This document shows, piece after piece, positions 1,622-64,000 of a stretch of DNA of 64,000 bases. Where the stretch lies: positions 1-64,000 of the IMG/VR virus record IMGVR_UViG_3300025108_004223; one strand, written 5' to 3'. The stretch comes from a virus. Numbering within the stretch: position 1 is the first letter of the stretch; the number at the start of each line of letters is the position of its first letter. The notes below the pieces were generated by a model. The model was not told the origin of the DNA and did no database searches. It saw only the letters and a program-made list of their open reading frames with translations. Position numbers and translations under genes: made by a program.

Positions 1622-1919
1622 AGAAAACATTTGGCATTTTACTTGTGATTACTGTCAAGGTTTTTGGAGTATAGCGACTATGGATGACTGGGAGCCTACA
1701 AACTTATATTGCACTCATTGTGGTGAACAAAATAAAAATGAAGGACATATTAGATTTGGAACCTCATCTTATACTAGAGCAGAAGATAGTTTTCAAAAAG
1801 AAATATGTTCATGTGGTCACAAAGTTATAGATTGCGATTGTGCACCAGGATGTAAATGTGGATGTAACAGACGTTACTTAGATTCCGAAACAAGTTTTGA
1901 TATGGAAAAATATACATGA
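1608..1919 (+). CDS. Small Cys-rich protein (two CxxC pairs and a metallothionein-like C-terminus)
   Basis: CDYC, CTHC, CSCGHKVIDCDCAPGCKCGC. It overlaps both neighbours. Confidence 0.6.
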   Translation: MNVNKENIWHFTCDYCQGFWSIATMDDWEPTNLYCTHCGEQNKNEGHIRFGTSSYTRAEDSFQKEICSCGHKVIDCDCAPGCKCGCNRRYLDSETSFDMEKYT

Positions 1920-42519: not shown

Positions 42520-43042
42520 AGCAATCAGAGACAAATACTTTGGTGATAATTGGCAACCCAATTGGGATCATTATGATTATAGTGGTTGGGCTCTAGTTGA
42601 TAAAATAGATCCAGATGAAACAATATTAGACGTTGGATGTGGATTCAATTTATTTAAAGATGTCTTTGGTGACAGAGTATACGGCATAGATCCTGCAAAC
42701 AAAAAAGCAGACGAACTTGTGGGCATTATAGAATTTGAAACTGATAAGCAATGGGACGTAGCATTTGCTTTAGGTAGTTTAAACTTTGGCACAGCAAAAG
42801 ATGTTGAACCTCAAGTAGAAAAAACAATAAGTTTAGTTAAACCAGGCGGTCGTATTTACTGGAGGCAAAATCCAGGACTAGGTGATCATCCATGGAAAGG
42901 TGTAGAAGAAATACAGTTTTTTCCTTGGAGTATGCAACTTAACTACGAATGGGCAGACAAATATAAGTGTATAGTAGTTGAATGTAAATGGGATGCAAAT
43001 AGTGATAGAATCTATGCTGAATGGAAGAAATCAAGTGTATGA
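42512..43042 (+). CDS. Class I SAM-dependent methyltransferase
   Basis: ILDVGCGFN, VYGIDP, LVKPGGRIY. Confidence 0.75.
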   Translation: MDKAIRDKYFGDNWQPNWDHYDYSGWALVDKIDPDETILDVGCGFNLFKDVFGDRVYGIDPANKKADELVGIIEFETDKQWDVAFALGSLNFGTAKDVEPQVEKTISLVKPGGRIYWRQNPGLGDHPWKGVEEIQFFPWSMQLNYEWADKYKCIVVECKWDANSDRIYAEWKKSSV

Positions 43043-44031
43043 ACTGGCTAGATAAATTCGACAAGCTAAAAGTAGAAATAACCTCTCATTGTAATGCAAA
43101 ATGTCCTGGATGCACTCGAAACATAACAGGCGGCAAAAATCAACCTGATTTAAAACTAAAACATATGCCATTTGAACTATGGGAACGTATCATGCACGAA
43201 GATACAAAGGGCATGAACATAGTTGAGGTATTGTTTGATGGCACAGTTGGTGATTTTTGTATGAATCCTAAAGCTATTGATTTTATTAAAACGGCACATG
43301 ACGCACACCCTGATATGTTTTTACAAATTAATACAAACGGTGGTGCCAGAACAGAAAAATGGTGGGCAGAACTCGGCGAGGTTATTGCTGAAATTCCACA
43401 TAGAGTAAACTTTGCAATTGATGGATTAGAAGATACACATCATATACACAGACGTAATACATCATATGATATAGTTGTGCGTAACATGAAAGCATTTATT
43501 TCAACTGGTGGGAATGCTAATTGGATATTCACATACTTTGATCATAATTTACATCAATACAAAGAAGCAGAAAAACGTGCAATAGATATGGGGTGCTATT
43601 GGTTCCAAACTAGATGGAGTTGTATTCCTGGCGAAGATTTAGATACAAAAACAGATACAGAAGAATATAAAATTGGAACAGAACATATTTACGAACACAA
43701 AGAATATATGAAGCATACAAGAATTCTGAAACATATGCAACCAGAATATGATGAAGAGTCGCATATATGCCCTGCATATGCTACTTCACAGATTACCATT
43801 GACTTTCGTGGTATACTTTGGCCGTGTAGTTACATATATTCAACCGAAGTTAGAACTAGAGAATGGGCAAGTCCGTTTCGTAACGAAATGCAACACCCAG
43901 GTGAAACAATAAGTTTACATAAATATACATTATCTAATATACTCACTAATACATTTTTTAAAGACCAATTACCAGATGTTATTGCTAATAAAAAGCTAAG
44001 TATATGCAATATGTGGTGTTTTAACGACTAA
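43039..44031 (+). CDS. Radical SAM protein with C-terminal SPASM/twitch
   Basis: CNAKCPGC; CPAY...IDFRGILWPC...CNMWC. Confidence 0.88.
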   Translation: MNWLDKFDKLKVEITSHCNAKCPGCTRNITGGKNQPDLKLKHMPFELWERIMHEDTKGMNIVEVLFDGTVGDFCMNPKAIDFIKTAHDAHPDMFLQINTNGGARTEKWWAELGEVIAEIPHRVNFAIDGLEDTHHIHRRNTSYDIVVRNMKAFISTGGNANWIFTYFDHNLHQYKEAEKRAIDMGCYWFQTRWSCIPGEDLDTKTDTEEYKIGTEHIYEHKEYMKHTRILKHMQPEYDEESHICPAYATSQITIDFRGILWPCSYIYSTEVRTREWASPFRNEMQHPGETISLHKYTLSNILTNTFFKDQLPDVIANKKLSICNMWCFND

Positions 44032-50166: not shown

Positions 50167-50625
50167 ATGAGAAACATTGGTAGAGGATTAATTGTTATAG
50201 CCATTTTAATTGTTGGCTTTATAATTGCAAATCCAATATTTGCAAAAGAAGTAGAGATGGTAGAATATGATTTTCCTATCACAAGAATTATTGATGGTGA
50301 TACTGTAGCCTTTGAGGCAAACTTTTTACCTGATCCACTTAAACAAGAATTAAGTATTCGTGTATATGGTGTTGATACTCCCGAAAAGAGTTGGAGAGCA
50401 GAATGTGATGAAGAAGCATTATGGGGCGAGGAAGCCTCACAGTTTACTAAAGATATGATAAATTCAGCCACTACAATACAAGTAGCCATTTACAAATGGG
50501 ATAAATTTGGTGGGCGAGTATTAGGTGATATTATTATCGATGGAAATAGCCTAAGACATATGCTTATTGAAAACGGATTCGCACGTGAATACTATGGAGA
50601 TAAAAAGGAGAGCTGGTGCGATTAG
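50167..50625 (+). CDS. Thermonuclease (SNase-like) with signal/TM anchor
   Basis: IIDGDTV, IRVYGVDTPE, DKFGGRVLG, LIENGFAREY. Confidence 0.88.
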   Translation: MRNIGRGLIVIAILIVGFIIANPIFAKEVEMVEYDFPITRIIDGDTVAFEANFLPDPLKQELSIRVYGVDTPEKSWRAECDEEALWGEEASQFTKDMINSATTIQVAIYKWDKFGGRVLGDIIIDGNSLRHMLIENGFAREYYGDKKESWCD

Positions 50626-50676: not shown

Positions 50677-51033
50677 CTAATTATTGCTACAGTTGTTGAC
50701 ACATACCTGAGGCGGCTTGTCACTTTTCCACCCATCATAGTATATGTAAGTTTGAAATATTTCATGTGCAATAATTTCATCAAGACTATGATATTCCAAA
50801 TTATTCCAGTTAGGATCATTATTCATTAGGTCCATAATCCTTTCATCTTCAACAAATGCAATAGAGTCGTATTCTTTAACACGACCTTCGTTATTGTAAA
50901 CGTCTCGTAGAGTCCATGCATTACTGAAAAAGCAACAAGGCCATACTTTATTATCTGGAGTTACTTCCCAACGTCTTATATTTTGGATATGATCCATTGC
51001 CTTGCATTTGATATTACATTTAGACATAATCAA
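50677..51033 (-). CDS. Stand-alone SPASM/twitch-like Fe-S domain protein
   Basis: CNIKCK...VTPDNKVWPCC...CVNNC, with no CxxxCxxC. Confidence 0.65.
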   Translation of the reverse strand: MIMSKCNIKCKAMDHIQNIRRWEVTPDNKVWPCCFFSNAWTLRDVYNNEGRVKEYDSIAFVEDERIMDLMNNDPNWNNLEYHSLDEIIAHEIFQTYIYYDGWKSDKPPQVCVNNCSNN

Positions 51034-51674
51034 TATCCTATATTAATTCCATTGTCGTCACATAATTTATTACATGCCTGCATATTTTCATCAGTTATTA
51101 ATCCATATGATCTATTATTGTAACGGAATATAATTCCAATATTCATATTGTCTGCTATTTGTTTAGCCAGTGTAACCTGTTGCCAATTCCAATCAAATAT
51201 TATATACAACCATTGTGCATATCCACCATTGTCAGCAAATGCTTTCATGTTGTTTATTGCACGTTCAAAATCAACACCTTCTCTATACAACCAATTAACA
51301 TCATGTGTAGCGCCATCTATTGCAAAATCTATCTTTAATCTTTTTTTATACTTTTTTGCAATCGACTCATACCAACCAGGTGCTCGTAACCCACCATTTG
51401 TTGATATAGTAACCATTGGTGCATAATTTAATGCGGTTTCGATAAAGTTATCAACTTGAGGATGCATCATAGGATCGCCAAACTCACCACAAAATTCAAT
51501 ATCATCAAGCTCTACATTTTTAAGATTAGCAAGTCTTTTTTCAAACACATTTAAGTCCATGTGCTTTAATTCAAGCCATGATTCTTTCTCACCTGTGTCC
51601 TCGTTTGTTCTAGCACAACTTCTACACTTAGCTTGGCAATAAGTGGTTAATGCAAAGTCAAAAGAATGTTTCAT
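51030..51674 (-). CDS. Short radical SAM protein lacking a SPASM domain
   Basis: CQAKCRSC, FCGEFGDP, STNGG, AIDG. Confidence 0.85.
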   Translation of the reverse strand: MKHSFDFALTTYCQAKCRSCARTNEDTGEKESWLELKHMDLNVFEKRLANLKNVELDDIEFCGEFGDPMMHPQVDNFIETALNYAPMVTISTNGGLRAPGWYESIAKKYKKRLKIDFAIDGATHDVNWLYREGVDFERAINNMKAFADNGGYAQWLYIIFDWNWQQVTLAKQIADNMNIGIIFRYNNRSYGLITDENMQACNKLCDDNGINIGY

Positions 51675-52306
51675 CTTTCACTCAGATGATCCCTTATAAA
51701 CAAATAGCTATCATCTGTTAACTTGGCATTGACTACTAACCAAATACTATCATAATTAGTGCTACAATTAAATAATGTGTGTGCTTTTGTAGTATTCACT
51801 ACGTAACATTGTCCAATCTCAAAGTTAAGTGTTGTATCTTCTAACATAAATCTACAATGAGGCGCATTACAATTTTCTATACCCCATATAAGTCTAAAAC
51901 TAGTTTGCTCACCAAACACATGATCTCTGTGTGGCGGGAAGTATCCGCCTGGTGGCAGTTTTAGGAAGTGCGATCTAACACTCCAATCTAACATAGGACC
52001 CATTACTCGTTGTAGCTCAGAGCTGGTATTATATAATTCTGTAGGAACATTAAAATCATCTTCATGCCATGTTGTTCCATGTTCACGGTTATATTGTCTT
52101 AAACTATCTAATGCAGGACCTGGTCCACATTTGCCACGTTCGTTGAGAACACATAAGCCGTCACGTTTAATCCAATCTTTGTGTGGATTATATTGAGACC
52201 ATTTGTCGTTGTGTGGTGTAACTTCATGTAGTAATTGATCTACATCAAATTCAGCATCGATTTGATAAAAATCACCCCACTGCGTAATTTTTGAAATGTC
52301 ATTCAT
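51671..52306 (-). CDS. Asp/Asn beta-hydroxylase-like 2OG-Fe(II) oxygenase
   Basis: LPPGGYFPPHRD ... NTTKAHTLFN. Confidence 0.78.
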   Translation of the reverse strand: MNDISKITQWGDFYQIDAEFDVDQLLHEVTPHNDKWSQYNPHKDWIKRDGLCVLNERGKCGPGPALDSLRQYNREHGTTWHEDDFNVPTELYNTSSELQRVMGPMLDWSVRSHFLKLPPGGYFPPHRDHVFGEQTSFRLIWGIENCNAPHCRFMLEDTTLNFEIGQCYVVNTTKAHTLFNCSTNYDSIWLVVNAKLTDDSYLFIRDHLSER

Positions 52307-52315
52307 TTTGATTTC

Positions 52316-53152
52316 CTACTTGTCGTGTGTGTTGACATAGTTCTGCTTGAACGATGTCTGTGGATTCTCTCCGCCTTTTACACGTTTGTCTAGATGTTTT
52401 ACATATTGAATCATGCCATGATCAGAAAATGAATCTAACCTGCCTTTAAACAATCCTCTGATAATACCACGCCATACGTCTTTGATACGTTGCCAGCCTG
52501 TTAGGTTTCTTAAGTTTCCATAGTGATTAAAGTATTGACAATGTCCATGATGAACATAACCAAATATTAAGAATGGAACTCTAGTTACTATATCTGCATT
52601 ATTAACCCAACGATAATGAGTGAATGGAAAGTTTTCAATATACGTTCTCCACCCAACTCTAGGTGAGCCAAATGTATGTAGTTCTTTTGGATTATTTAAA
52701 GCACTGTCACCTCTACAACGGCTTGCTACTATAGTTGACATAGCTGCACCAAGTGAATGTCCACAGAACCAAATACTACGTTTTGATTGCTCTCTAATTA
52801 GGTCTTCTTTAATTAAATCCCATAATTTATCTACTTCGCCTTTAAATCCACCATGCACTCTGCCTATTGTTTCTGCAACAACTGGAAATGCTCTAGCGTC
52901 TGCTTTAATATCATTGTATTGTGTTGGCTGTGTGCCTCTACATGCAATCACTAAATCATGTTTATTCATAAAGCGATATGCTTCTGCGCCATCTATATTA
53001 TAAAACTCAACAGTAGTGAATCCTAATTTCCTTGCTAGTTTTTTAACCTCAGTTACTTTATAATAAGCAATCTGGGCCAGTTCTGCAAATAATAAGGCTC
53101 TTTTGTTACCTGACAGTAATTCTATTTTATTTGTTAGTTTTATGCTAAACAT
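52316..53152 (-). CDS. Class 3 lipase
   Basis: IACRGT, CGHSLGAA, TFGSPRVG, VNNADIVTRVP. Confidence 0.88.
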   Translation of the reverse strand: MFSIKLTNKIELLSGNKRALLFAELAQIAYYKVTEVKKLARKLGFTTVEFYNIDGAEAYRFMNKHDLVIACRGTQPTQYNDIKADARAFPVVAETIGRVHGGFKGEVDKLWDLIKEDLIREQSKRSIWFCGHSLGAAMSTIVASRCRGDSALNNPKELHTFGSPRVGWRTYIENFPFTHYRWVNNADIVTRVPFLIFGYVHHGHCQYFNHYGNLRNLTGWQRIKDVWRGIIRGLFKGRLDSFSDHGMIQYVKHLDKRVKGGENPQTSFKQNYVNTHDK

Positions 53153-53156
53153 ATAT

Positions 53157-53165
53157 GTATTTATA
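53157..53165 (-). promoter_or_regulatory. T4-like late promoter consensus upstream of the lipase
   Basis: Minus strand TATAAATAC immediately before the ATG at 53152. Confidence 0.55.
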
Positions 53166-54282
53166 CTCTACGCTTAGGTATCTTGCTATCAGCACTACTA
53201 ACACATGCTTTTGTTGTGCATAATGTAGGTTTATCAAACAATTTAAAGCCGGTTTCAATATTACCTAACGGTTGATCACCACAACTATAACTACGTTTTA
53301 TACTTCCATCTGGCTCTCTAATAATGATACCTTGGTATCCACTGTTACACATCCAGCCTTTGAAATTGTTAAAATCAAATGCATTAAAACGTTCTGCTTG
53401 GTCCATATACCATTTCTTGCCTTGTGAGTCTGTAAACTCTACTTGCATGTGCCATGGAACACTTGCATCATTTCTGCCTATTGTATAATCTGGAATTTCA
53501 AATTTAGGTTTAGGACGTTTAACTACCCTTGCTTCTGCAGCCTTTTGCTCTGTATAACTACGCTGTGGCATTCCATTGTGTAATTTTGCTTTCATTTCAT
53601 CTGTGTAACCCTCAACAACTTTACTTGCTGTTGGATCACTTTGTGGTTTGAGTGTTACGTTAATACCTTGCTTGTGAAAGAACAATGCATTATCATAATA
53701 CAAGTCAAATACTTCTGGAACCATAACCATGTTAATAGTTACCTGCACATCATGTTGTTGACATAATACTAATTTGTCTGCAAGGTCTTGCATCTTCTCT
53801 GGAGTATCAACATGCTCTACGTGTAAACTACATGTGATACTTGCTCTGTGAAAATGACTTGCATAGTCAACATATGTTTTAAACCATTTTATAGGTCTAC
53901 TACAATTGCTTGTCATGTGTATACTTGTATAGTTTGTGTTATGCACATCATCTGCTAAATGTTTTAGCATGTCTAAATAACCCGGATGGAACGTAGGCTC
54001 ACCTCCACTTAAACTAAAGTGAAAACTATTGAATCCATTCTGTCTTGCTTGGCGTTTTATCTCGTCTATTGTTTTGAGATTGAGTTCGGTAGGACGGTGG
54101 TCTTTACGGTCGCTACGGGCATAAGGCCAACAATAGCTGCATCTGTAGTTGCAGAATCTTCCCAATAGCCAACTAACTGTAAACAAATCACGATACAACA
54201 AAGTCCGCTGACCAACTTGAACCAAGTCGTCAAAAGGTATTTTTGTGAAATCATAATTACTCCAATTCAGTTCTTCACTCAT
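53161..54282 (-). CDS. Radical SAM protein with C-terminal twitch-like Cys motif
   Basis: CNYRCSYC, LSGGEPT, CNSG...C...C....C. Confidence 0.9.
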   Translation of the reverse strand: MSEELNWSNYDFTKIPFDDLVQVGQRTLLYRDLFTVSWLLGRFCNYRCSYCWPYARSDRKDHRPTELNLKTIDEIKRQARQNGFNSFHFSLSGGEPTFHPGYLDMLKHLADDVHNTNYTSIHMTSNCSRPIKWFKTYVDYASHFHRASITCSLHVEHVDTPEKMQDLADKLVLCQQHDVQVTINMVMVPEVFDLYYDNALFFHKQGINVTLKPQSDPTASKVVEGYTDEMKAKLHNGMPQRSYTEQKAAEARVVKRPKPKFEIPDYTIGRNDASVPWHMQVEFTDSQGKKWYMDQAERFNAFDFNNFKGWMCNSGYQGIIIREPDGSIKRSYSCGDQPLGNIETGFKLFDKPTLCTTKACVSSADSKIPKRRV

Positions 54283-54294
54283 TTAAAATATTTC

Positions 54295-54855
54295 CTAATC
54301 ATGCTGTAATGGATCTACGCTCAGTTCATTAACTGATAAGTGTTCGGGCATATCAATTACATATTCTATTAAATCTACTGCTTCGTCTAGTGTCATTGTT
54401 TTACGTCCTGGGTGTTTATGTGCATGGTTCTCTAATGTGCCAAATGTAACATAACTTACCTTAGGACCACCTTGCCAAATGCTTTTTAAACCCATTGCAT
54501 TGCTTGTGCTACGCAAGGCCTTTTTTTCTTGTTGATAAAGCCAATCGCTACCCTTTGTAGCTCTGTCAGTTGTAGAGCTTAAATTGACTATATGTAGTCG
54601 TTTAAGGTGTCTTAAACTGGTTTTATAGACTACATCTAGTAGCAAGGTTTGATTGAAGTGCCATAATGCACTACAGTTAATAAAAACGTCAAAGTTAAGA
54701 GCCTTTTCTGCGAGCTTAGATCTATAGCCATTTTCAGTTAAATCGTAACCCCATGTGGTTCTACTAACAAATGTTGCATTAGGCCAGCGTTTAGCAATAG
54801 CACTTGCTACACCTTCTTCTGGATTGCCTGTGCATAGTATTGTTTTAGACATCAA
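54295..54855 (-). CDS. Short-chain dehydrogenase/reductase-like protein
   Basis: ILCTG...GVASAIA, FINCSA, IVNLSS, YQQEK (YxxxK). Confidence 0.7.
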   Translation of the reverse strand: MMSKTILCTGNPEEGVASAIAKRWPNATFVSRTTWGYDLTENGYRSKLAEKALNFDVFINCSALWHFNQTLLLDVVYKTSLRHLKRLHIVNLSSTTDRATKGSDWLYQQEKKALRSTSNAMGLKSIWQGGPKVSYVTFGTLENHAHKHPGRKTMTLDEAVDLIEYVIDMPEHLSVNELSVDPLQHD

Positions 54856-56071
54856 TGTATCCTTTAAACTCAGGACATGCTACAAGTAGTTCACCACGTT
54901 GTAATGTATCCATTTTTAAATTATAGTCTATAAACTGTTGCCATAGTTTGTCATGCCAATCTTCGGCTCTCATATACTTTAATGTGTCCATTACTTTGGG
55001 CCATTTCTGATAAGGCAGTAAACTTAGTATTGCTTTCTCTTTTAGTGCATTAGGTAGCACTCGTATATTCATGCAATCTGGGTGGTTAAGAATATTGAGA
55101 TAAACTTGGTCACCTTCTAACCCACGTGACTCTGCAAAATCTAACAGTTCATGTAACGCACATATGTTAAGGACTTGAACTGTGCAATGTATTTGAATAT
55201 CTACATTATCAAACGTGTTTAGCTCGTCGAAGTTTTTCTCTACTTTTTCCCAACTACTTGGATAACGGATGTATCTATCTCGGTCCCCTACTGCATCAAT
55301 ACTACAGTTAAGTTGGACCCGTTTAAACTTGCTCCAATATTCAATCATCTTAGGTGGAATGTTAGTTAGGTTAGTATTGTATTTTAATTTAATTCCACTC
55401 GCTAAATCGTTTTCAATACAGTAGTCTAGTAATTTATATTGTGATGTAGCAAGTGTAGGTTCACCACCCGTTAAATATATTTCTTGAACTGTATGTGCAA
55501 TGTCTTGAAAGTTTAGCCCAGTTTTCTTAAAGTCTGGCCATTCTGTCATTACATTCATAAATTTTAAAGTCTCACCTGTAAGCTCTACTGGTGGGTCTAA
55601 TTTTGCTGTTGGAATAACTTCGTTCCAATCTTTAATCCACATGCTACTTGCCCAAGGATTACACATTCTACATTTTAAATTACACAAGTTACCCAAACGT
55701 AAATCTACATAACGCACATCTACTGGAATCTCAGTATCTACCTTAACATCATCTGTCCACCATTTTTCATTAAAGCCTGCACGTGGACTGCGTATACCTG
55801 CATCTTCTTCACGGAAACATCTTACACACATTTCTGGTTTCTCACCATCAATAAGCTGTTGTCGTATTTTTGTGTATGTAGGACTGTTCCATACTTCTTC
55901 CAAATCGTTCTTATAAATTTTGTATGGTTTGTCTGTTTCAGGGTTTATAATTTGGTTTGTGTTAGGATTACTATTACAGCATACTCTAAACGAACCAGCG
56001 GCATTTGTTGCCACATGCATAAATGGTAATACGCAAAATGTTTTACTTGGTAATGGTTTATCTGTTTTCAT
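54845..56071 (-). CDS. Radical SAM protein with N-terminal twitch/SPASM-like domain
   Basis: FCVLPF...VCC...CVRCF; CNLKCRMC; LTGGEP. Confidence 0.9.
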   Translation of the reverse strand: MKTDKPLPSKTFCVLPFMHVATNAAGSFRVCCNSNPNTNQIINPETDKPYKIYKNDLEEVWNSPTYTKIRQQLIDGEKPEMCVRCFREEDAGIRSPRAGFNEKWWTDDVKVDTEIPVDVRYVDLRLGNLCNLKCRMCNPWASSMWIKDWNEVIPTAKLDPPVELTGETLKFMNVMTEWPDFKKTGLNFQDIAHTVQEIYLTGGEPTLATSQYKLLDYCIENDLASGIKLKYNTNLTNIPPKMIEYWSKFKRVQLNCSIDAVGDRDRYIRYPSSWEKVEKNFDELNTFDNVDIQIHCTVQVLNICALHELLDFAESRGLEGDQVYLNILNHPDCMNIRVLPNALKEKAILSLLPYQKWPKVMDTLKYMRAEDWHDKLWQQFIDYNLKMDTLQRGELLVACPEFKGYIDV

Positions 56072-56191
56072 TATTTTTAGTTTTTTGACCTTTTCCCGAT
56101 AGGTATTTTACAGTAGTTGGTTGACCAAATACTTTTATATATAATCGTGTAAAAAAAGCTTCTATCTTGCTCATAACATTATTATTTATTT

Positions 56192-57163
56192 TTAAATAAA
56201 ATCCTGATAGTTTGTTCCATGTATTTTATCCATAATTTTACTTTGTTCTATCAATGTCTTTCTTAGTATTCCATCTTGCATAGCATCTGGCGACATAAAT
56301 GCTGGGCTAATTACTGGTGTTGATTTATACCAGTTAATTTTATTATCCTGGCACCAAGTTATTATCTCATCTAAATTGTTACGGTTAAAAACCATTGGTA
56401 ATACTGTAACTGTTAGATTTGTATTCTTAGGTTTGTGCTTATTAAATATAACAGTGTTATTGCTTGTTGTCAACCAACTTGAACCAGGTCGTATATATTC
56501 ATATCTGTCACCTACTGCTTCTATGCTTATGTTAATATAGACTTGCTTAAATTTCTCAAAGTAATGATTCCATGCAGTCATGTCATGGCTTCCATTTGTT
56601 ATTAGATGTAATTCAATTGCTGGTGCTACATCTTCATCTATTAGTCGTTGTATAATCTTTTTTACTTGTGGTATCATAAATGGTTCACCACCTGTAAACT
56701 TTACAATTTTTGCATCTAACATAAGATGACTAAACTCTAATGATTGTTTAACCCAACCTGTATCTTTTAATTTGTCAAATTGAGGGTGCCAATTCTCTTG
56801 TTGATTTTCTTTAATTATTTTTGCCCATGTGCTACTGCTTGTTTGATTACACATTCTGCATGCAAAGTTGCAAGTGTTGTTTATTTTTAGGTCCCAATGC
56901 TTAATCCCTACTTCGTTCTCAAACTGCTCGTTATATTTCGTGCGTAAACTTTGTCCTGTTAGTTCTTCGCTTAATTTACATTCAGCACATTCGTTTAGCC
57001 ATTCTGTTTCGCTACGCTTACTCCATTCAGCATGACGTGTTTCCCAATCGTCATCCCAATATAAATTCTTTGTTCCTCTTTTTACCTGAAATGCACAACA
57101 AGGTCGCACTGCTCCAGTAGGTCCTATTGTTACACCGTTTTTAAATATCGAACATCTTGGCAT
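56192..57163 (-). CDS. Radical SAM protein with N-terminal twitch/SPASM-like domain
   Basis: CSIF...PCC...CAEC; CNFACRMC; FTGGEP. Confidence 0.9.
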   Translation of the reverse strand: MPRCSIFKNGVTIGPTGAVRPCCAFQVKRGTKNLYWDDDWETRHAEWSKRSETEWLNECAECKLSEELTGQSLRTKYNEQFENEVGIKHWDLKINNTCNFACRMCNQTSSSTWAKIIKENQQENWHPQFDKLKDTGWVKQSLEFSHLMLDAKIVKFTGGEPFMIPQVKKIIQRLIDEDVAPAIELHLITNGSHDMTAWNHYFEKFKQVYINISIEAVGDRYEYIRPGSSWLTTSNNTVIFNKHKPKNTNLTVTVLPMVFNRNNLDEIITWCQDNKINWYKSTPVISPAFMSPDAMQDGILRKTLIEQSKIMDKIHGTNYQDFI

Positions 57164-57890
57164 AATTTTTGTTTACTATTTTCTTAAATTCATATGATGG
57201 TCCACCATCGAATATCATATGTATACGTGGTTCGTCACTGCGATTCCATACTGCATGATAATGACCAGTGTTTATTTTTATTGCACGACCTGGAGCATAT
57301 GGCATAGCGCCGTAATCTTGTATGACTAGTTTACACCCATCTGGATTATTAATAGCAACGTTAGTTGCTCCTAGCCCTGTTATTCGATCTCTGTCTGTAT
57401 GCGGCCTAATCCATCCGTTTGGTAGCAGGGCCATAAATCTAACACGACTAAAGTTTTCGTATAGCATTTCATCTTGCATCCACTCTTTAGTAATTGGTGT
57501 ATATCTGCTAATATCTGTCCAGTCACTTAATTCATGTTCTGCTTCGTCTGGCATTCCATAATCTTCTGGACAATTAGTATGCACACTACTCATACCATGC
57601 ACACATAAACTTAACCAGCCGCCGCCACTGTTTGCTCTGTGTAAACTAAAGCATTCAGTTTCTAGCAAGTGTATTGCTTCTGCATGTATTTCTTTCCATG
57701 GCACATTAATATCTGGTAATGTTACCCAAGGAACACGTGTGTTGTCCATTATGTCGTTAATTTCATCTGCTATAATTTGTTGTTTATCAGCATCAGCAGG
57801 ATTAGTATTTTTATTTTCGTGTTCGTAGAACCAATCTTTTGCCTCTTCGTCAATTTCTTCCCAATATGCTAATCGTTTATAAGTTTCCAT
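57141..57890 (-). CDS. Asp/Asn beta-hydroxylase-like 2OG-Fe(II) oxygenase
   Basis: LLPNGWIRPHTD ... NTGHYHAVWNRSDEPRIHMIFD. Confidence 0.82.
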   Translation of the reverse strand: METYKRLAYWEEIDEEAKDWFYEHENKNTNPADADKQQIIADEINDIMDNTRVPWVTLPDINVPWKEIHAEAIHLLETECFSLHRANSGGGWLSLCVHGMSSVHTNCPEDYGMPDEAEHELSDWTDISRYTPITKEWMQDEMLYENFSRVRFMALLPNGWIRPHTDRDRITGLGATNVAINNPDGCKLVIQDYGAMPYAPGRAIKINTGHYHAVWNRSDEPRIHMIFDGGPSYEFKKIVNKNYAKMFDI

Positions 57891-59372
57891 TTAAAATATC
57901 CCCGGTAATGTTCTCATATTTTTATACTCGTAATATTCACCGCCCGGTGTATCACCTGAAAAATATATAGTTTTGTTATTTTGCAATAACTCATTGAATA
58001 GATCAATGAATGCCACTTGAGCATCAAAGTCTGGTGAGTTAATATAGTTAATCTCATATTGCCATATATTACTTAGTTGCAATAATGCTTTACAATCTTT
58101 GCCTATTAACTCGCTTAAACGTTTCCATTCTTTTACTATATCAATTTTAATAAACTGATGATCAAGTGTTTTAATAAAGTCCCAATGCTCTAGCCATTCT
58201 TCTTCATTCTTATAACTTCTAATAAAGTCTAATGCATTTTCTTCATCATACCAAATAAATTCGTCACTTGGTAATCCTAGATCTGTAATAACATGGAAGT
58301 TATCTTTATAAAATTTTGGAAAGTCTTTACCATCCCAATTTTCTAATAGGTGTTTTGTCCACCCAATTCCAAATGGGCTAAAGTCTGTCCATAATATACG
58401 TTTTATTGTATCACGTTGATGGCTAATATGTTTAAATTGATGTAGCCCGCTACAAGGAGCAACAAGTGTGTCAATTCCTAATGGGTCACCTTGTGGCACC
58501 ATTTCTGTATTAGTAACATACATGATGTGTGTATCCATGACCTTGTATTGAAATAATTCACGCTTGTCATTATTTACTAAATTATATCCATAACTACGAC
58601 TCTCGTCAAGACTAAGTCTTGTGTTAAAGTCATAATCAAAAAACCATTCTTTTGTAAATTCTAAATCATCTTCTACATAACAACATATCTTATGTTTACG
58701 TATATCATAATCTAAGTTATGTATTGTTAACCCATTTAAAAATGCTAACGGAAATAATGTATTAAAAAAGTCATCATTAAAATCTTCTGGCTTATCAACT
58801 AGTTTCCATTGGTGGCCGGCCAACACTGCATCTTTGGCAGATACCCACATTGGAGTATAATCGTCATGCATGTGTTCAGCTGATGATCTATAACTTGGAT
58901 GTTGTTGCAATTGATCGCCAATGTTCTCTAAACTTTCAAAATGTGCTAACAAAGGTTCGAATGTTTTAAGGTTAAGAACAATACATTGCTCGTGCCATTG
59001 TGGAGCATCTGTGCCACGTTGTAATATATGTCCTGCAGCTAACCAATTAGTTTCGTTCCATTTGTTATCTATTGCATTTATTACTTCTTCGTCAAACTCT
59101 GTTTCACCTGGCCAATTTCCATCAAACCAAATCACAGCATTTTGATATCCGAGAATACATAGATGTCTGATAACATCTCCAAAAAATCCTTGACTATATC
59201 TATCACAATGCAAGAAAGAATATTCTGTGCTATTGTTAATATTGATTTGCATAAGTTTTTTCAGTTTGCCTGCATAAGCATCTTCATCTTTTAAAGCAGG
59301 ATGTAATACTTCATTGAAGAACACATGAACTATCTTATTATCTTTTAACTCTGGTTTTAATTTTAAATACAC
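57891..59372 (-). CDS. Two-domain unknown protein (paralog A)
   Basis: Shares ordered blocks with 59372-60826: GY..A..WF.G.WP, W..AG, Y..NTE, W.DF, W.G.DFP, SNI..Y. Confidence 0.6.
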   Translation of the reverse strand: MYLKLKPELKDNKIVHVFFNEVLHPALKDEDAYAGKLKKLMQININNSTEYSFLHCDRYSQGFFGDVIRHLCILGYQNAVIWFDGNWPGETEFDEEVINAIDNKWNETNWLAAGHILQRGTDAPQWHEQCIVLNLKTFEPLLAHFESLENIGDQLQQHPSYRSSAEHMHDDYTPMWVSAKDAVLAGHQWKLVDKPEDFNDDFFNTLFPLAFLNGLTIHNLDYDIRKHKICCYVEDDLEFTKEWFFDYDFNTRLSLDESRSYGYNLVNNDKRELFQYKVMDTHIMYVTNTEMVPQGDPLGIDTLVAPCSGLHQFKHISHQRDTIKRILWTDFSPFGIGWTKHLLENWDGKDFPKFYKDNFHVITDLGLPSDEFIWYDEENALDFIRSYKNEEEWLEHWDFIKTLDHQFIKIDIVKEWKRLSELIGKDCKALLQLSNIWQYEINYINSPDFDAQVAFIDLFNELLQNNKTIYFSGDTPGGEYYEYKNMRTLPGIF

Positions 59373-60826
59373 TATTCTAATCCTATTCCTCTATTATCTG
59401 TTGCACTAAGAACAACATTTGCTGGACACATTAAATCATTATCGTTTATATCAGTTCCACTGAACCAACTATCTTCGTGTGTGCTACACACTTTTTCTAT
59501 CATTTCTATAAAACTTTTTTCTAATGCAAAAGGTTTTGCCATTAGCTTTGGTGTGATATAACTATAAATATTACTACTCCAAAATAAAGTCTTTTTATTT
59601 TTTATTTGCTTAAACATTTCAGTATGTTTGTAAATTAAATCTACATTGAAATATTGATGTTCGCATTGTTTTACTTTGTTCCAAAATTCTAACCATTTAA
59701 CTGGTCCGTCAAAATAATCAATTACTGTTGACCAACGCTCGTGTGCCATTGAACGCAATCTATCATTACAACCAGGATGTGCATGAACCCACTTATCTAC
59801 CCATGCAGGAAAATCTTCTCCATTCCAATGCGTAATAGTATCACGTTTAAATTGCACACTATCTGCATCAAAATCAAACCATACAAAACTTGTATTCTCT
59901 GTCATTCCATACTTGTAAGCATAGTATAGAAGCTTAAATCCCGCCGTGCAGCCTACATATTGATCAAACTTAGTATCTAGTGCTTGCGGAGAAATACTTG
60001 GACTGCTAGGCTCTGTATTAACAAAATATATAGGACTAGTAGGTCCGTGTATCCTATTTATTAATCTGTTACCGGTATTAGAAACAACACTAGTGTCGTA
60101 ATTTTGTCCCATAATACCTTTTTCAAATTCAACAGAACCTATATGTGCTTTTGACATAAACACATGATCCATAAGTTTGTTTGATAATCCCCATACTGTA
60201 AGATTATGTATAAAACTCCACTGCACCCAATTTGCACTAAAATTATGTTGATTTATGAATTGTTTTTCGGTTGGTGTATCTGTCCAATCCCAATCTGGAT
60301 CAATATTAAGTCTATATTTGCTATCTTCATAATCTTTGTTTGAATCATAATTTACCCAGTCTGGATGATTTTCCGATACATAAAATGGACTTAGACTTTT
60401 ATTGTCATTCCACTTTGTTATGTTTATAATGATAAATGTTCTTGTAAAATATGGGTATACATTATCATCTGCTTGTAGTTGTCCTGCTAGTATCCATTCT
60501 GGATCTTCTTTATTGTATCTATCTATTTCATCCAGTAATGATAAATTAAATTCTTCGTCGTCTGGCCAAACTCCTTCAAACCATAAACATGCATACTTAT
60601 ATCCTAACTTACCCATTGCAGTTATCCATGTTGAATCATATTGATTGTATACATTTACAATACCGCCACGTAAATGATTATTACATTCAACGTCTTGTAT
60701 GATTCCTAGTTTTTGTTTTAATATAGGTGTGTTGTTAAGTTCTTTATCTAAAGGTAAAAATGCATGAACAATAGGCCATGCTATATCTACATGGCTATAT
60801 TCCCAACTTTGTTGACCTTGTTTCAT
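59372..60826 (-). CDS. Two-domain unknown protein (paralog B)
   Basis: Same blocks as paralog A; 1 nt stop/start overlap. Confidence 0.6.
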   Translation of the reverse strand: MKQGQQSWEYSHVDIAWPIVHAFLPLDKELNNTPILKQKLGIIQDVECNNHLRGGIVNVYNQYDSTWITAMGKLGYKYACLWFEGVWPDDEEFNLSLLDEIDRYNKEDPEWILAGQLQADDNVYPYFTRTFIIINITKWNDNKSLSPFYVSENHPDWVNYDSNKDYEDSKYRLNIDPDWDWTDTPTEKQFINQHNFSANWVQWSFIHNLTVWGLSNKLMDHVFMSKAHIGSVEFEKGIMGQNYDTSVVSNTGNRLINRIHGPTSPIYFVNTEPSSPSISPQALDTKFDQYVGCTAGFKLLYYAYKYGMTENTSFVWFDFDADSVQFKRDTITHWNGEDFPAWVDKWVHAHPGCNDRLRSMAHERWSTVIDYFDGPVKWLEFWNKVKQCEHQYFNVDLIYKHTEMFKQIKNKKTLFWSSNIYSYITPKLMAKPFALEKSFIEMIEKVCSTHEDSWFSGTDINDNDLMCPANVVLSATDNRGIGLE

Positions 60827-60947
60827 TTGATTGTCCTGTCTACTTCATATTCATCAATATACATAATTGCAAGTCCACCTGCATTACCTACTACTATCCC
60901 TAATAACAACGCAAGGAGCATAACAGAAAAAAATTGTAATGCACCTT

Positions 60948-62183
60948 TCATTTACTTTGTCTTTCGTTTTCTTTTGCTACTACATCCATACCCTCAAGTG
61001 GCATGTCCATATAATTTCTAATCATTTGTTTTAGGCTAGTATCTTGTTTATATCGTTCTTCTATATCACGTGTATACTTTCGCATACGAGCATAAATCAT
61101 ATAATCACTTTTATTGTTTTCCATGTATGTTGCAAACCTATTCATTTCAGGATGTTCTACTTCGTGGTGTCTTAACTTTTCAATAATAGCTTGCCTGTAT
61201 TCATTTTGCCACACTGCTGGTGACAAATACTTAGGTGTTTGCAATATGTTAGCAGTAATAAACTTTAGGTCAACTGGGCTATCTTTCCAAAACTGAAAGA
61301 ACTCTGGCATTTGATATATGTTGTGTGCTTGCACTGTAATACCAGCAGCAACATCAATTCCAGGTTCGTTGTTTAGTGCCATCATGTTGGCGTAAACTGT
61401 ATCCCAATCGCCGTCTTGTCTAATGTAGTTGTATACATCTCCAATACCATCCATGCTTACTTTTATATTTACGTGTTTAAATTCGTTCCATATTTTAATC
61501 AAGTCATATTTCTTAAATTTAATATAACTTAGGTTACTTGCATAACGCAAACGTATACGCTTCTTTGCTTCTGCAGGAATACCTTCCAACAAGTCGTAAT
61601 GTTCTTTGTTGATAATAGGTTCACCACCTGTAAACTGTAGTGTATGCACATGGTCCCATAGTTCAGGCCATTCATTTAAACTTGCAAACAAATCTGTTGG
61701 TCTTAGCAGTCTAGTTTCGTATCCATCTGCTTGATATTTTTTAAGTATGTCTAAGTCAGCTACACGCTTATAAGAACTATGTGTGCTACACATAATGCAT
61801 TTTAAGTTACAGAAGTTACTTACTTTAAGTTCTACCCAATAAGGCGCATTGTTAACGCTGTAATCGTTGTTTACGCTTATCTTATCTGCAAATGTATTCC
61901 AGTTGTCATGTTCCCATTGTTGACGGTTGCTAACGATTCCACTGTCCTCATTGTGCCAGCACACTGCACAGCGTTCCGGTCTTTCGTCATTTGCTAAGGC
62001 CCTTCTTAGCTCTTTATAGTTGTCGTTATTCCAGCTCTCAATTGCTGACTCGCCTGGGTTGTTCAATGGGATCTCTTGTGCTTCGCAACATGGAACCATG
62101 TCACCACCAGCACTGCCATAGATATGCATATACGGTAACATGCAAAAACTTTTGCTATTTTTGAGATCTTCTTTGTTAATCAT
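60948..62183 (-). CDS. Radical SAM protein with N-terminal twitch/SPASM-like domain
   Basis: FCMLPY...PCC...CAVCW; CNLKCIMC; FTGGEP. Confidence 0.9.
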   Translation of the reverse strand: MINKEDLKNSKSFCMLPYMHIYGSAGGDMVPCCEAQEIPLNNPGESAIESWNNDNYKELRRALANDERPERCAVCWHNEDSGIVSNRQQWEHDNWNTFADKISVNNDYSVNNAPYWVELKVSNFCNLKCIMCSTHSSYKRVADLDILKKYQADGYETRLLRPTDLFASLNEWPELWDHVHTLQFTGGEPIINKEHYDLLEGIPAEAKKRIRLRYASNLSYIKFKKYDLIKIWNEFKHVNIKVSMDGIGDVYNYIRQDGDWDTVYANMMALNNEPGIDVAAGITVQAHNIYQMPEFFQFWKDSPVDLKFITANILQTPKYLSPAVWQNEYRQAIIEKLRHHEVEHPEMNRFATYMENNKSDYMIYARMRKYTRDIEERYKQDTSLKQMIRNYMDMPLEGMDVVAKENERQSK

Positions 62184-63400
62184 TAGTAAGGTATATACTC
62201 TATTCTATCTTTATACTCTGCTTCACACAAAGTTTTTAATCTGCGTATGCATGGCTCGTTAAAATCAAAGCCACGTATTTTCCAAATGTGTTTTAGGTTA
62301 GCCAAGTAAGCCGCACTAAAATCTTCTACACCATTTGGCTTGCACAAGTCTTCTACTAGCTTCTTCATCTTGTTAACACGGTTGGGATTGATAACAGTTT
62401 CGTTATACTGATAACGAAATGCGTCTAGTAGTTTTTCTTTAAACCAATCAGGCCAGTGTGTAACACTAAGATTGTTTGGTTCGTATACTGTTTGTAGTAT
62501 AACATTATTTACTTTCTTTACATTGCGGGCCCAAACAACAAAGTCATATAGATATAGTATATTCATAACACTAATTGTGCATGCTATATTAACTTTAACC
62601 TTGTCTGGATACTGTTGCTTGAATGCTAACCATTTGTCTAATGTATCTTCTGTCTTTTCCCATGTGCTAGGATAACGTATCATGGAATTAAGTTCACCAT
62701 GTGCATCCATACTCATGCTAAGTGTAAGTTCCTTGAATTGGAACAATGCATCGTATTCTGCTTTCTTGGGCCACCATGTGCAATTACTAAATATTTCCAT
62801 TTGTATCTGTGGAGCCAATCCTGCGTCTGCTAATCTTACAACAAACTTCATAAACTGTGGATGTAGGAATGGTTCGCCACCTGTTACTTTCATATGCTTT
62901 AGATGTTTTAACGCATCTAAGTCAATCTCATCAAAGTTTACAACTTGATTCTTTTTTAGTTTAGCTATTAAATCAATTGCCGCTTGTGAGTTTTTGTTAA
63001 ACTTCAAGTAGTCGTCATCCCACTTGTGACTCCACTCTGGTCCACATGTTTGACAGGTCAAGTTGCATAGTCTACCCACTGTAATTTCTAAATACTCTAA
63101 ACGCACCTCATCAGTAAAGTCATTAAAGAACTCGTCTGCTTCAGTTCGCATGCTACTACCTTTGGTTTCCTCGTCTGCTTTACATTTATAACAACCTTCA
63201 TGCCATTCATTACGCATCATAGTTTCACGTATATCAGTGAACATCTCACCATACACGTTAACATGTTCCTTGTCGCTTTCTTCTAAAAATCTATCATGAA
63301 ATCTACAACATGGAGTTGTTGGAACTCCATGCATAATCATGCCTGCTTTAAAAGGATACGCACATGCGTTTTTAGGTAGTTTTTTTGACATTAGAGCCAA
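62183..63400 (-). CDS. Radical SAM protein with N-terminal twitch/SPASM-like domain
   Basis: CAYPF...PCC...CYKC; CNLTCQTC; VTGGEP. Confidence 0.9.
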   Translation of the reverse strand: MALMSKKLPKNACAYPFKAGMIMHGVPTTPCCRFHDRFLEESDKEHVNVYGEMFTDIRETMMRNEWHEGCYKCKADEETKGSSMRTEADEFFNDFTDEVRLEYLEITVGRLCNLTCQTCGPEWSHKWDDDYLKFNKNSQAAIDLIAKLKKNQVVNFDEIDLDALKHLKHMKVTGGEPFLHPQFMKFVVRLADAGLAPQIQMEIFSNCTWWPKKAEYDALFQFKELTLSMSMDAHGELNSMIRYPSTWEKTEDTLDKWLAFKQQYPDKVKVNIACTISVMNILYLYDFVVWARNVKKVNNVILQTVYEPNNLSVTHWPDWFKEKLLDAFRYQYNETVINPNRVNKMKKLVEDLCKPNGVEDFSAAYLANLKHIWKIRGFDFNEPCIRRLKTLCEAEYKDRIEYIPY

Positions 63401-64000
63401 GTGCCTTTTTGTTTATAGTTTTTAAGTGCATGTCTAATATTCACTCTATTATACACACCGTCTTTTTTAAATCGTTTCCACTGCTCTGCCTCTGGTGCTT
63501 GTGCAATGTGAATTGTATTAGTTGGTTGTAGTCCATAATGCTCACAGAGCAGTATATGTTCTTTCATATACTTCTTGGGCATAGTGTCAGGACTAAAGTT
63601 TTTCATAAGCTCGTTTGCAATGCATACATTTAAATGAATGCCATGTTTCCATTCTGTTTGCACTGCTAATGCACCTTCGTTAAGTTTGCTGAATACAATA
63701 CCTGCACGCCAGTTGCCACAGCTAAGACCTTTTGTAGTGCTGAACGCAACCATCTTAATACAATCTCTAGCCAAGTTAATCTCAATTCCATGACAAGTTC
63801 CAAACCACGCCATGTCTACAAATACAGGAATGTTATTAGCATCACAAAAGTCTAGTGTTTCTTCCATTTTGCTATGCTTTGCACCTGTGCCACTAAATGG
63901 TAAACTAATAAGCAATGCATCTCCTGTGCTTAATGGTGTGTCGTCTACATATCGCTGACCTATCCATTCTTCACCAAGTATAGCATCTCTGTTGTATGGG
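63391..64000 (-). CDS. Fold-type I PLP-dependent enzyme, 5' end outside the window
   Basis: FVDMAWFG and FSTTKG (PLP Lys). The frame stays open from 63915 to the window edge. Confidence 0.65.
   Translation of the reverse strand, partial: PYNRDAILGEEWIGQRYVDDTPLSTGDALLISLPFSGTGAKHSKMEETLDFCDANNIPVFVDMAWFGTCHGIEINLARDCIKMVAFSTTKGLSCGNWRAGIVFSKLNEGALAVQTEWKHGIHLNVCIANELMKNFSPDTMPKKYMKEHILLCEHYGLQPTNTIHIAQAPEAEQWKRFKKDGVYNRVNIRHALKNYKQKGTWL

Follow-up and report, generated by a model that had tools for sequence, protein, structure and literature searches.

The IMG/VR virus record IMGVR_UViG_3300025108_004223 (126,762 bp, classed as linear and about 35% complete) carries, at the end of its first 64,000 nucleotides, a minus-strand run of genes (50677-64000) rich in radical S-adenosylmethionine (rSAM) enzymes. 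These first 64 kb are the stretch of DNA examined here, referred to as the window; positions beyond 64000 are those of the record. An earlier note, made from the letters of the window, had described the run as a 13 kb biosynthetic-cluster-like operon of a phage. Our findings indicate that the run belongs to a conserved operon, which extends over about 18 kb in a Rak2-like jumbo phage of marine origin, and that it makes up the downstream two-thirds of that operon. The phage origin is supported by the virus record itself and by its family-B (T4-type) DNA polymerase, which shares 43-50% identity with those of Rak2/Atu_ph07/GAP32-like jumbo myoviruses, and near-identical DNA is present in marine metagenome runs of several studies.

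From 50677 to the window end, every sizeable open reading frame (ORF) lies on the minus strand. Pfam and BLAST recover the contents first described: six rSAM ORFs, two AspH-like 2-oxoglutarate (2OG) oxygenases, a class-3 lipase, two paralogs of about 490 aa and a pyridoxal phosphate (PLP) enzyme. The compact junctions also stand: neighbouring ORFs overlap by 4 nt at 51030/51033 and 51671/51674 and by 1 nt at 59372 and 62183, and two ORFs abut at 57890/57891. The extent of 13 kb does not, since the window cuts the cluster: the conserved operon starts with an amidinotransferase gene at 69099 and runs to about 53161, followed by a variable tail that ends at 50677. Its genes are listed below in the direction of transcription, followed by a second block. 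In this list, N-twitch denotes the rSAM family NF033640, Family B a second rSAM family, GM the two paralogs of about 490 aa and SDR a short-chain dehydrogenase/reductase.

68011-69099, minus strand: amidinotransferase, first gene of the operon
66934-68007, minus strand: Family-B rSAM, upstream of the window
65694-66944, minus strand: N-twitch rSAM, upstream of the window
Between the PLP gene and the amidinotransferase, minus strand, upstream of the window: a 205-aa protein of unknown function, following the N-twitch rSAM, and a GDSL-like protein
63391-64377, minus strand: PLP enzyme, fold-type I aminotransferase-like (328 aa; Aminotran_1_2, 23.3 bits against a cut-off of 19.7), cut by the window end at 64000
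62183-63400, minus strand: N-twitch rSAM A405 (NF033640, 228.7 bits; Pfam Radical_SAM, 27.2 bits, below its cut-off; CxxxCxxC at residue 112)
60948-62183, minus strand: N-twitch rSAM A411 (NF033640, 319.5 bits; Pfam SPASM at residues 14-76 before Radical_SAM at 120-273)
60823-60951, minus strand: hydrophobic small ORF of 42 aa between A411 and GM484, with an ATGA overlap with both neighbours
59372-60826, minus strand: GM484, two-domain paralog of GM493 (GM-family profile, 4e-110)
57891-59372, minus strand: GM493, with a predicted N-terminal GT-A-like glycosyltransferase domain and a predicted C-terminal class I methyltransferase-like domain
57141-57890, minus strand: AspH1, AspH-like Fe(II)/2OG oxygenase (PF05118, 43.6 bits), adjoining GM493 downstream
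56192-57163, minus strand: N-twitch rSAM A323, a short form (NF033640, 181.8 bits)
54845-56071, minus strand: N-twitch rSAM A408 (NF033640, 373.4 bits)
54295-54855, minus strand: 186-aa protein, SDR-like by motif only
53161-54282, minus strand: rS373, rSAM with an N-terminal core and a Cys-rich C-terminal domain (PF04055, 51.8 bits; below all equivalog cut-offs)
52316-53152, minus strand: class-3 lipase-like hydrolase of the variable tail (Lipase_3, PF01764, 69.6 bits)
51671-52306, minus strand: AspH2, second AspH-like oxygenase, in the variable tail (PF05118, 22.7 bits against a cut-off of 22.6; HxD and distal His legible)
51030-51674, minus strand: N-terminal half (214 aa) of a split Family-B rSAM that spans 50677-51674
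50677-51033, minus strand: Cys-rich C-terminal half (118 aa) of the same split gene, overlapping the first half by 4 nt
Record 71103-76317: second block, with two more N-twitch rSAMs, a nucleosidase of the methylthioadenosine/S-adenosylhomocysteine (MTA/SAH) type and another GDSL-like protein

Scans for promoters and terminators gave no usable operon boundaries, with promoter counts at chance level, and a megablast search of the 13-kb stretch against a phage collection returned no match. Some cluster genes are also covered by metatranscriptome contigs of three studies, in most cases at 90-99% identity. Most of these contigs stem from relatives and they could be DNA-derived, which makes them a weak hint of expression at best.

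Radical SAM families and partner enzymes

Radical_SAM (PF04055) matches 16 proteins of the record, all of which keep the CxxxCxxC motif (16/16), and in 50677-64000 Pfam assigns it to six ORFs. An all-against-all BLAST comparison resolves three kinds, termed Family A, rS373 and Family B. Family A has 11 members by BLAST, and ten exceed the cut-off of the NCBIfam family NF033640 (N_Twi_rSAM; 176-422 bits against 170), a score reached in 0 of 14 control genomes; the remaining BLAST member, rS373, is divergent. The five members of Family B carry the core first and a Cys-rich domain at the C-terminus. N-twitch proteins show the reverse layout that characterizes NF033640, in which a Cys-rich, twitch/SPASM-like domain precedes the CxxxCxxC core in all ten ORFs: Pfam SPASM is placed at residues 13-85, ahead of Radical_SAM at 126-285, and in the alignment C13, C82, C85 and a GGE motif are invariant and C31 almost so. 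NF033640 is a naming family to which no known reaction is assigned; a search of a literature library found no paper on N-terminal-twitch rSAMs, and a search of solved structures found no close homolog.

The earlier observation that none of these enzymes shows hallmarks of QueE, NrdG or MoaA holds for the whole record, as no rSAM reaches the cut-off of any characterized equivalog. Scores against the NCBIfam equivalogs for anSME, MoaA, QueE, NrdG, PqqE, viperin, BlsE and the sactipeptide/ranthipeptide maturases lie at 18-56 bits, with cut-offs of 131-850. An assignment to known single-step families such as the anaerobic sulfatase maturases, which had been raised as a counter-reading, is therefore not seen. 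An AlphaFold2 model of A408 (pLDDT 94) matches the core folds of anSME, SkfB, BlsE and viperin at tied Z scores of 12.6-13.4; since these and the other neighbours are divided between peptide modifiers (anSME, SkfB, SuiB) and enzymes of sugars or nucleotides (BlsE, viperin, MoaA), the fold does not tell the class of substrate.

The "free SPASM" protein of the earlier note exists as an ORF of 118 aa (18.3 bits, below the cut-off), but it is not free-standing. When it is joined to the 214-aa ORF before it, the product can be aligned from end to end with four paralogs of full length, and the alignment takes in the WPCC and C-terminal Cys motifs, which identifies the ORF as the C-terminal half of a split rSAM gene.

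Among the partner enzymes, the amidinotransferase matches the solved proteins HsvA at 2e-26 over its full length (residues 6-356), StrB1 at 7e-22, SxtG at 5e-17 and AGAT at 1e-12, and the catalytic Cys motif GG-I-H-C can be read near its C-terminus; as judged from its sequence, it is a genuine amidinotransferase. To our knowledge, its solved relatives all act on small amines, and we know of no amidinotransferase that acts on proteins. In the PLP enzyme, D188, K216 and R224 are invariant in 17 orthologs, and its profile gave a single weak match among solved structures, to an aminotransferase (E 0.02), spanning the Asp and Lys motifs. Together, the amidinotransferase and the PLP enzyme would point to a small substrate on which a ketone is converted to an amine and then to a guanidine. 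The SDR named in the earlier note is not recovered by any Pfam or NCBIfam model at 54295-54855, where the motifs alone (a Gly-rich N-terminus and YxxxK) suggest the family.

GM484 and GM493 (484 and 493 aa) belong to no Pfam family and are related to each other at a blastp E value of 5e-18. The AlphaFold2 model of GM493 (pLDDT 91) contains two domains. Residues 8-275 match GT-A glycosyltransferases (Z up to 10.5, rmsd 3.4-4.1 over 154-172 residues), namely CHSY3, LARGE1, majastridin, R699, LH3 and COLGALT1, and residues 265-488 match the class I methyltransferases NNMT/PNMT (Z 9.8 over about 180 residues). The C-terminal domain has a PxSGL motif after the strand at 302-306 and an invariant D330 after the strand at 325-330; this motif together with an invariant Asp after the second strand fits predicted binding of S-adenosylmethionine (SAM). 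No Pfam glycosyltransferase model matches the GM proteins, nor does any sequence model for the methyltransferase-like domain.

The GM family is small and virus-dominated, with 168 representatives among 1.84 billion proteins. Of the longer relatives tested, 7 out of 10 are fused to Asp_Arg_Hydrox, at either end, and in the operon AspH1 (iron triad H164, D166 and H212, invariant in 12 orthologs) directly follows the GM pair. The fusions tie both families to one substrate and appear to be a new observation. They recall the hydroxylate-then-glycosylate logic of LH3-type enzymes, and the GT-A-fold domains of LH3/PLOD3, COLGALT1 and mimivirus R699 match the GM N-terminal domain at Z 9-10, with only 6-8% sequence identity. 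However, the oxygenase is of the AspH (PF05118) type rather than the lysyl hydroxylase type, the record holds no collagen-like substrate, and LH3-type enzymes are without the extra C-terminal methyltransferase-like domain. Separately, a second type of viral locus (L020-L023, L025, L029, L036-L038) has a lone GM493-like gene (38-44% identity), with the remaining operon absent, a few genes from a homolog (73-79%) of the Family-B rSAM at record 108177-109268.

Elsewhere in the record, a MetK is encoded at 85596-86684 on the minus strand (TIGR01034, 422.7 bits against a cut-off of 309.4; PF02773, E 2e-59), and the MTA/SAH-type nucleosidase of the second block (72958-73506) scores 50.3 bits with PF01048, over the gathering score, and 112 with its best NCBIfam equivalog, whose cut-off is 129. 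Both fit a SAM-hungry programme. At 122479-126207, on the minus strand, a NodU-like carbamoyltransferase, a Family-B rSAM, a 148-aa protein of unknown function and a sugar-1-phosphate nucleotidylyltransferase-like protein, the last below every NCBIfam cut-off, stand in a row and may form a second sugar-nucleotide tailoring unit. A search of the 127-kb fragment for SufE and flavodoxin found neither, which says little for a record that is about 35% complete.

Conservation among viruses and Bdellovibrionota

Gene-order conservation in relatives, one of the checks proposed at the outset, is borne out in at least 13 distinct viral contigs (32-94% identity; loci around homologs of A408 and GM493). 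The conserved order is amidinotransferase, Family-B rSAM, A416, PLP enzyme, A405, A411, GM484, GM493, AspH1, A323, A408, the SDR-like protein (not in every case) and rS373, after which the variable tail begins. The PLP gene keeps its position in all syntenic loci, GM484 lies directly upstream of GM493 in every one, and the SDR-like protein is 72-87% identical across them. The tail is far less constant. Of 22 related loci, only L017, the closest relative, has the lipase, AspH2 is confined to L017 and L019, and the Family-B gene is split in the same way in L017, L024 and L026.

The junction between A411 and GM484 behaves as an insertion hot spot. Across 15 loci it holds variable small inserts or none; examples from relatives are a conserved protein of 57-59 aa, a protein of 93-94 aa and a coiled-coil peptide of 44-47 aa. 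The 42-aa ORF found here is thus not a conserved precursor, as the same junction is empty or carries unrelated inserts in relatives. Consequently, the enzyme mix that had been likened to clusters for ribosomally synthesized and post-translationally modified peptides (RiPPs) comes with no conserved precursor ORF at this junction, the only one compared across loci. The other gaps of the operon measure 120 and 51 bp.

Homologs of the rSAMs are abundant in public data, mostly from marine metagenomes, with 4819 clusters at 90% identity (E<=1e-10) for rS373 and 2777 clusters, mostly marine, for A408. In a pattern scan that covered one genome per prokaryotic species, the prokaryotic relatives of A408 were overwhelmingly metagenome-assembled genomes (MAGs) of Bdellovibrionota, a link that appears to be a new observation. 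An even sample of this phylum has at least one N-twitch rSAM in 27 of 121 genomes, and five genomes carry 7-20 each, often in tandem. For instance, a 916-kb Bdellovibrionia contig contains 13 N-twitch copies in about 30 kb, adjoining rpoD and a Ser/Thr kinase gene, and the same cluster includes GM-like, AspH-like, amidinotransferase-like (43% identity), PLP (43%), Family-B and rS373-like genes. In Pseudobdellovibrionaceae, pairs of N-twitch rSAMs lie downstream of two glycosyltransferase family 2 (GT2) genes and a class II aminoacyl-tRNA-synthetase-like gene. Identity of rS373 falls from 75-92% in phage relatives to 58-63% in bacterial MAG loci.

The relationship extends to individual paralogs. 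In a tree obtained by a quick maximum-likelihood search of a chosen subset of loci, with a midpoint root, phage and bacterial sequences fall together in each of five orthogroups, those of A405, A416, A411, A408 and A488 (SH-aLRT 95-100; 99 for A411), and the A323 orthogroup is phage-only in this sample. Mixed orthogroups of this kind imply that the paralogs have distinct, conserved roles. By this tree, the paralogs diversified before the module was shared, which fits one enzyme per step.

A further set of loci, on MAG contigs L039, L040, L053, L055, L062 and L085, brings together homologs of B363, A488 and rS373 and suggests a conserved sub-module of three rSAMs. Phage-MAG identity is unusually high in these loci (58-80% for rS373, 54-65% for A488), and two of the contigs, L039 and L040, may in fact come from phages and have been binned into MAGs.

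A candidate tailoring pathway and its alternatives

The multi-step modification pathway proposed in the earlier note is supported by these results, with no rSAM reaching the cut-off of a characterized equivalog. As to its product, we tentatively favour, at somewhat less than an even chance, a tailored glycoconjugate of sugar-like character that bears amino and guanidino groups. The substrate would be a sugar-like small molecule, such as a sugar-nucleotide, a cyclitol or similar. One of its carbons would be oxidized to a ketone by a dehydrogenase-type rSAM or the SDR-like protein, the ketone would be transaminated by the PLP enzyme, and the amidinotransferase would pass an amidino group from arginine to the new amine. 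Hydroxylation by the 2OG oxygenases and transfer and/or methylation by the GT-A-like/methyltransferase-like proteins could follow, with each N-twitch paralog contributing one radical tailoring step (e.g., epimerization, deoxygenation, or C-C or C-methyl chemistry). SAM would be supplied by the phage MetK, and 5'-deoxyadenosine and S-adenosylhomocysteine would be cleared by the MTA/SAH-type nucleosidase. The product would most likely be a surface glycoconjugate, on the virion or on the host envelope.

A sugar-like substrate is favoured because of the amidinotransferase, the GT-A-like/methyltransferase-like proteins with their fused or neighbouring hydroxylases, the GT2 genes close to rSAMs in Bdellovibrionota and the sugar-nucleotide genes beside another Family-B rSAM, and also because the closest analogues, phages CP220 and S-SCSM2R, are rich in glycosyltransferases. 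Campylobacter phages CP220 and CPt10 have 11-12 rSAM genes, among them five that form a module with an amidinotransferase gene (Timms et al. 2010, PMC2853527). Both belong to the T4 superfamily, and the function of the module is not known, as is the case here. The annotation of CP220 places two nucleotide-diphospho-sugar-transferase proteins and a PAP2 phosphatase beside these genes, so that five rSAMs, an amidinotransferase and two GT-A-fold proteins share one cluster. The CP220 rSAMs resemble Family B (E about 1e-15) and its amidinotransferase matches at 2e-21. However, CP220 has no N-twitch (NF033640-type) rSAM and no GM-family protein, its module is smaller, its host is a Campylobacter of the chicken gut, and tblastn with A408 found no Campylobacter phage.

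Similarly, five glycosyltransferases are encoded in one operon of the cyanophage S-SCSM2R, along with 2OG oxygenases, an rSAM, a PLP enzyme and an amidinotransferase. The authors who described this phage labelled the genes "antibiotic synthesis genes" and detected an amidinotransferase and a prolyl-hydroxylase-like protein in virion preparations (BMC Biol 2025, PMC12801897). This marine T4-like phage shares with ours the 2OG oxygenases, PLP enzyme, Family-B-like rSAM and amidinotransferase, as well as a function that is not known, but it has a single rSAM, five canonical glycosyltransferases in place of GM proteins, a PLP enzyme of the AHBA_syn/DegT type and an amidinotransferase only 23% identical. 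Other reports describe a marine T4-like genome with 12 rSAM genes, grouped as Fe-S-related auxiliary metabolic genes (Nishimura et al. 2017), and rSAM cassettes in the host-recognition cluster of pelagimyophages (Zaragoza-Solas et al. 2020). Aminocyclitol and aminoglycoside biosynthesis (StrB1, StsC/BtrS, BtrN) is alike in its pathway logic alone, joining an amidinotransferase, a PLP aminotransferase and rSAMs with auxiliary clusters. StrB1 is the second-best solved relative of the phage amidinotransferase, but no cyclitol synthase or aminoglycoside glycosyltransferase was found here, and the 50 best structural matches listed for the N-twitch model do not include BtrN.

The description of the locus as an undescribed system is thus only partly correct: rSAM expansions and phage modules with rSAMs and an amidinotransferase were reported in 2010, 2017 and 2025, though with no function assigned, none of these modules has a known product, and the main rSAM family already has an NCBIfam name. 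The cluster is a much-expanded new variant of phage modules that had been noticed earlier without explanation.

Several points weigh against a glycoconjugate. The PLP enzyme is of the Aminotran_1_2 type and not of the usual sugar-aminotransferase family, and no Pfam GT2 or DegT sugar aminotransferase is present in the 127-kb record, which covers only about 35% of the genome, so that partner genes may lie outside it. The predicted GT-A and methyltransferase domains are fold matches at Z of about 10, modestly over the tool background of 7-8, and a canonical DxD could not be placed in the GM N-terminal domain, where E234 and D235 are kept only among closer relatives. In addition, enzymes of the AspH family often act on proteins, and the modelled N-twitch core, with its generic SPASM/twitch-type matches at Z 12-13, fails to separate substrate classes. 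Beyond the direct observations (family assignments, catalytic motifs, synteny, fusions, orthogroup structure and distribution), the substrate, the order of the steps and the destination of the product are inferred, and no enzyme of the operon has a demonstrated substrate.

The same pathway could instead yield a diffusible guanidino metabolite, akin to aminoglycosides, aminocyclitols or guanidine toxins, that acts on the host or on competitors and is not attached as a glycoconjugate. We rate this as unlikely, though several points speak for it: HsvA, StrB1 and SxtG, the solved proteins nearest to the amidinotransferase, belong to natural-product or polyamine pathways, a carbamoyltransferase of the NodU/CmcH type is encoded elsewhere in the record, BlsE and similar twitch-type rSAMs rank high among the fold neighbours, the analogous genes of S-SCSM2R were termed antibiotic synthesis genes (PMC12801897), and the module is also present in predatory bacteria. 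The operon, however, has no exporter, resistance gene or regulator, its GT-A-like proteins and its glycosyltransferase-rich analogues suggest transfer to an acceptor, and a lytic phage would probably be short of time to gain from an antibiotic.

Somewhat less probable again is the modification of proteins or ribosomal peptides (virion, tail-fibre or host proteins), in which rSAM cross-linking or epimerization and AspH hydroxylation would be followed by glycosylation or methylation by the GM proteins, in the manner of LH3. The family PF05118 is named after protein Asp/Asn hydroxylases, anSME, SkfB, SuiB and CteB are among the best fold matches of the rSAM core, GM proteins are fused to AspH in relatives, and the GM N-terminal domain matches LH3, COLGALT1 and mimivirus R699. 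The pelagimyophage rSAM cassettes within a host recognition cluster and the two enzymes detected in S-SCSM2R virion preparations (PMC12801897) are also compatible with it. On the other side, the A411/GM484 junction, the one compared across loci, holds no conserved small ORF, the remaining gaps of the operon are 120 and 51 bp, and Pfam detects no RiPP recognition element (RRE)/PqqD, protease or transporter/exporter domain at E<=0.01, a threshold at which divergent RREs can escape the models. The record also contains no collagen-like or repeat protein, and the amidinotransferase would have no role that we know of on a protein.

Known thymidine hypermodification pathways employ rSAM and PLP enzymes, and a staphylococcal-nuclease homolog abuts the cluster (50167-50625). 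Hypermodification of phage DNA bases after replication, or donor synthesis for it, nevertheless seems very improbable to us, because the multi-paralog module also occurs in Bdellovibrionota chromosomes at 7-20 copies per genome, the operon has no DNA glycosylase/transglycosylase, kinase or DNA-binding domain by Pfam, and 16 rSAMs are far beyond any known DNA-modification pathway. Scarcely credible is a set of loosely related auxiliary genes, not joined in one pathway, that boost the oxygen-independent metabolism of the host, as Timms et al. 2010 (PMC2853527) proposed for the 11-12 rSAM genes of CP220/CPt10 and as the Fe-S grouping of Nishimura et al. 2017 would suggest, given the strict order and tight translational coupling over at least 13 contigs, the domain fusions that join neighbouring families, the absence of any rSAM match to a housekeeping equivalog, and a phage-bacterium conservation that, orthogroup for orthogroup, argues for one coordinated pathway.

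Returning to the guanidino glycoconjugate, a bolder form of the idea is possible, though we consider it more probably wrong than right: marine jumbo phages and predatory Bdellovibrionota would share an ancient biosynthetic system, inherited en bloc and founded on a massively expanded N-twitch rSAM family. Its product would be a glycan or natural product of a new, guanidino-bearing class, used either on the envelope of the prey or host or on the surface of the phage or predator itself, and each paralog would catalyse a distinct, undescribed radical reaction on carbohydrate-like substrates. If this were true, two kinds of bacterial killer would be using one biosynthetic system. Phage genomes with at least 10 rSAM genes have been noted since 2010 without explanation, and the present locus supplies a defined unit for their study: a conserved operon, a named dominant family (NF033640) without a known reaction, a fusion link to AspH-like oxygenases and, paralog by paralog, a second home on Bdellovibrionota chromosomes. 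CP220 and S-SCSM2R offer cultured handles, and cultivable Bdellovibrionota may serve as well, though all genome matches found here are MAGs. Once resolved, the chemistry could add several new rSAM reactions and reveal a new surface or effector molecule of phages or predators.

Neighbouring genes and minor observations

Two genes at record 69240-71085, on the plus strand, diverge from the amidinotransferase gene. The first (69240-70076, 278 aa) also accompanies the operon in other phages and at two loci of Bdellovibrionota. It has an invariant HxD...H motif and was likened to Kdo hydroxylase (KdoO) by language-model features alone (score 0.97); Pfam Kdo_hydroxy gave no match even at E 10 and a 17-sequence profile found no solved relative, so KdoO remains only a lead. 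Close homologs of this gene (P0452, P0458) lie on contigs of about 322 kb, one of them labelled "bacterium" at NCBI, which are probably near-complete genomes of related jumbo phages.

Outside the operon, the plus strand of the window carries three N-twitch rSAMs and one Family-B rSAM, at 1916-3085, 8148-9368, 32842-34221 and 43021-44031; they are scattered among other genes at a long distance from the operon. A methyltransferase-like gene is found at record 120435-121109, and on the contig of one relative (L013) an S-AdoMet lyase is encoded near the cluster. The staphylococcal-nuclease homolog (PF00565, E 1.4e-11) is on the plus strand and converges on the 3' end of the operon. The palindrome AAGAYRTCTT occurs in five copies in the window (20268, 42657, 45381, 48260 and 48617; 0.49 expected), all of them in its plus-strand part and none (0) in the rSAM operon. 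Just beyond the second rSAM block, at record 77877-79091 on the minus strand, lies a gene for a DUF2201 putative metallopeptidase with a VWA-like domain (E 6e-35).

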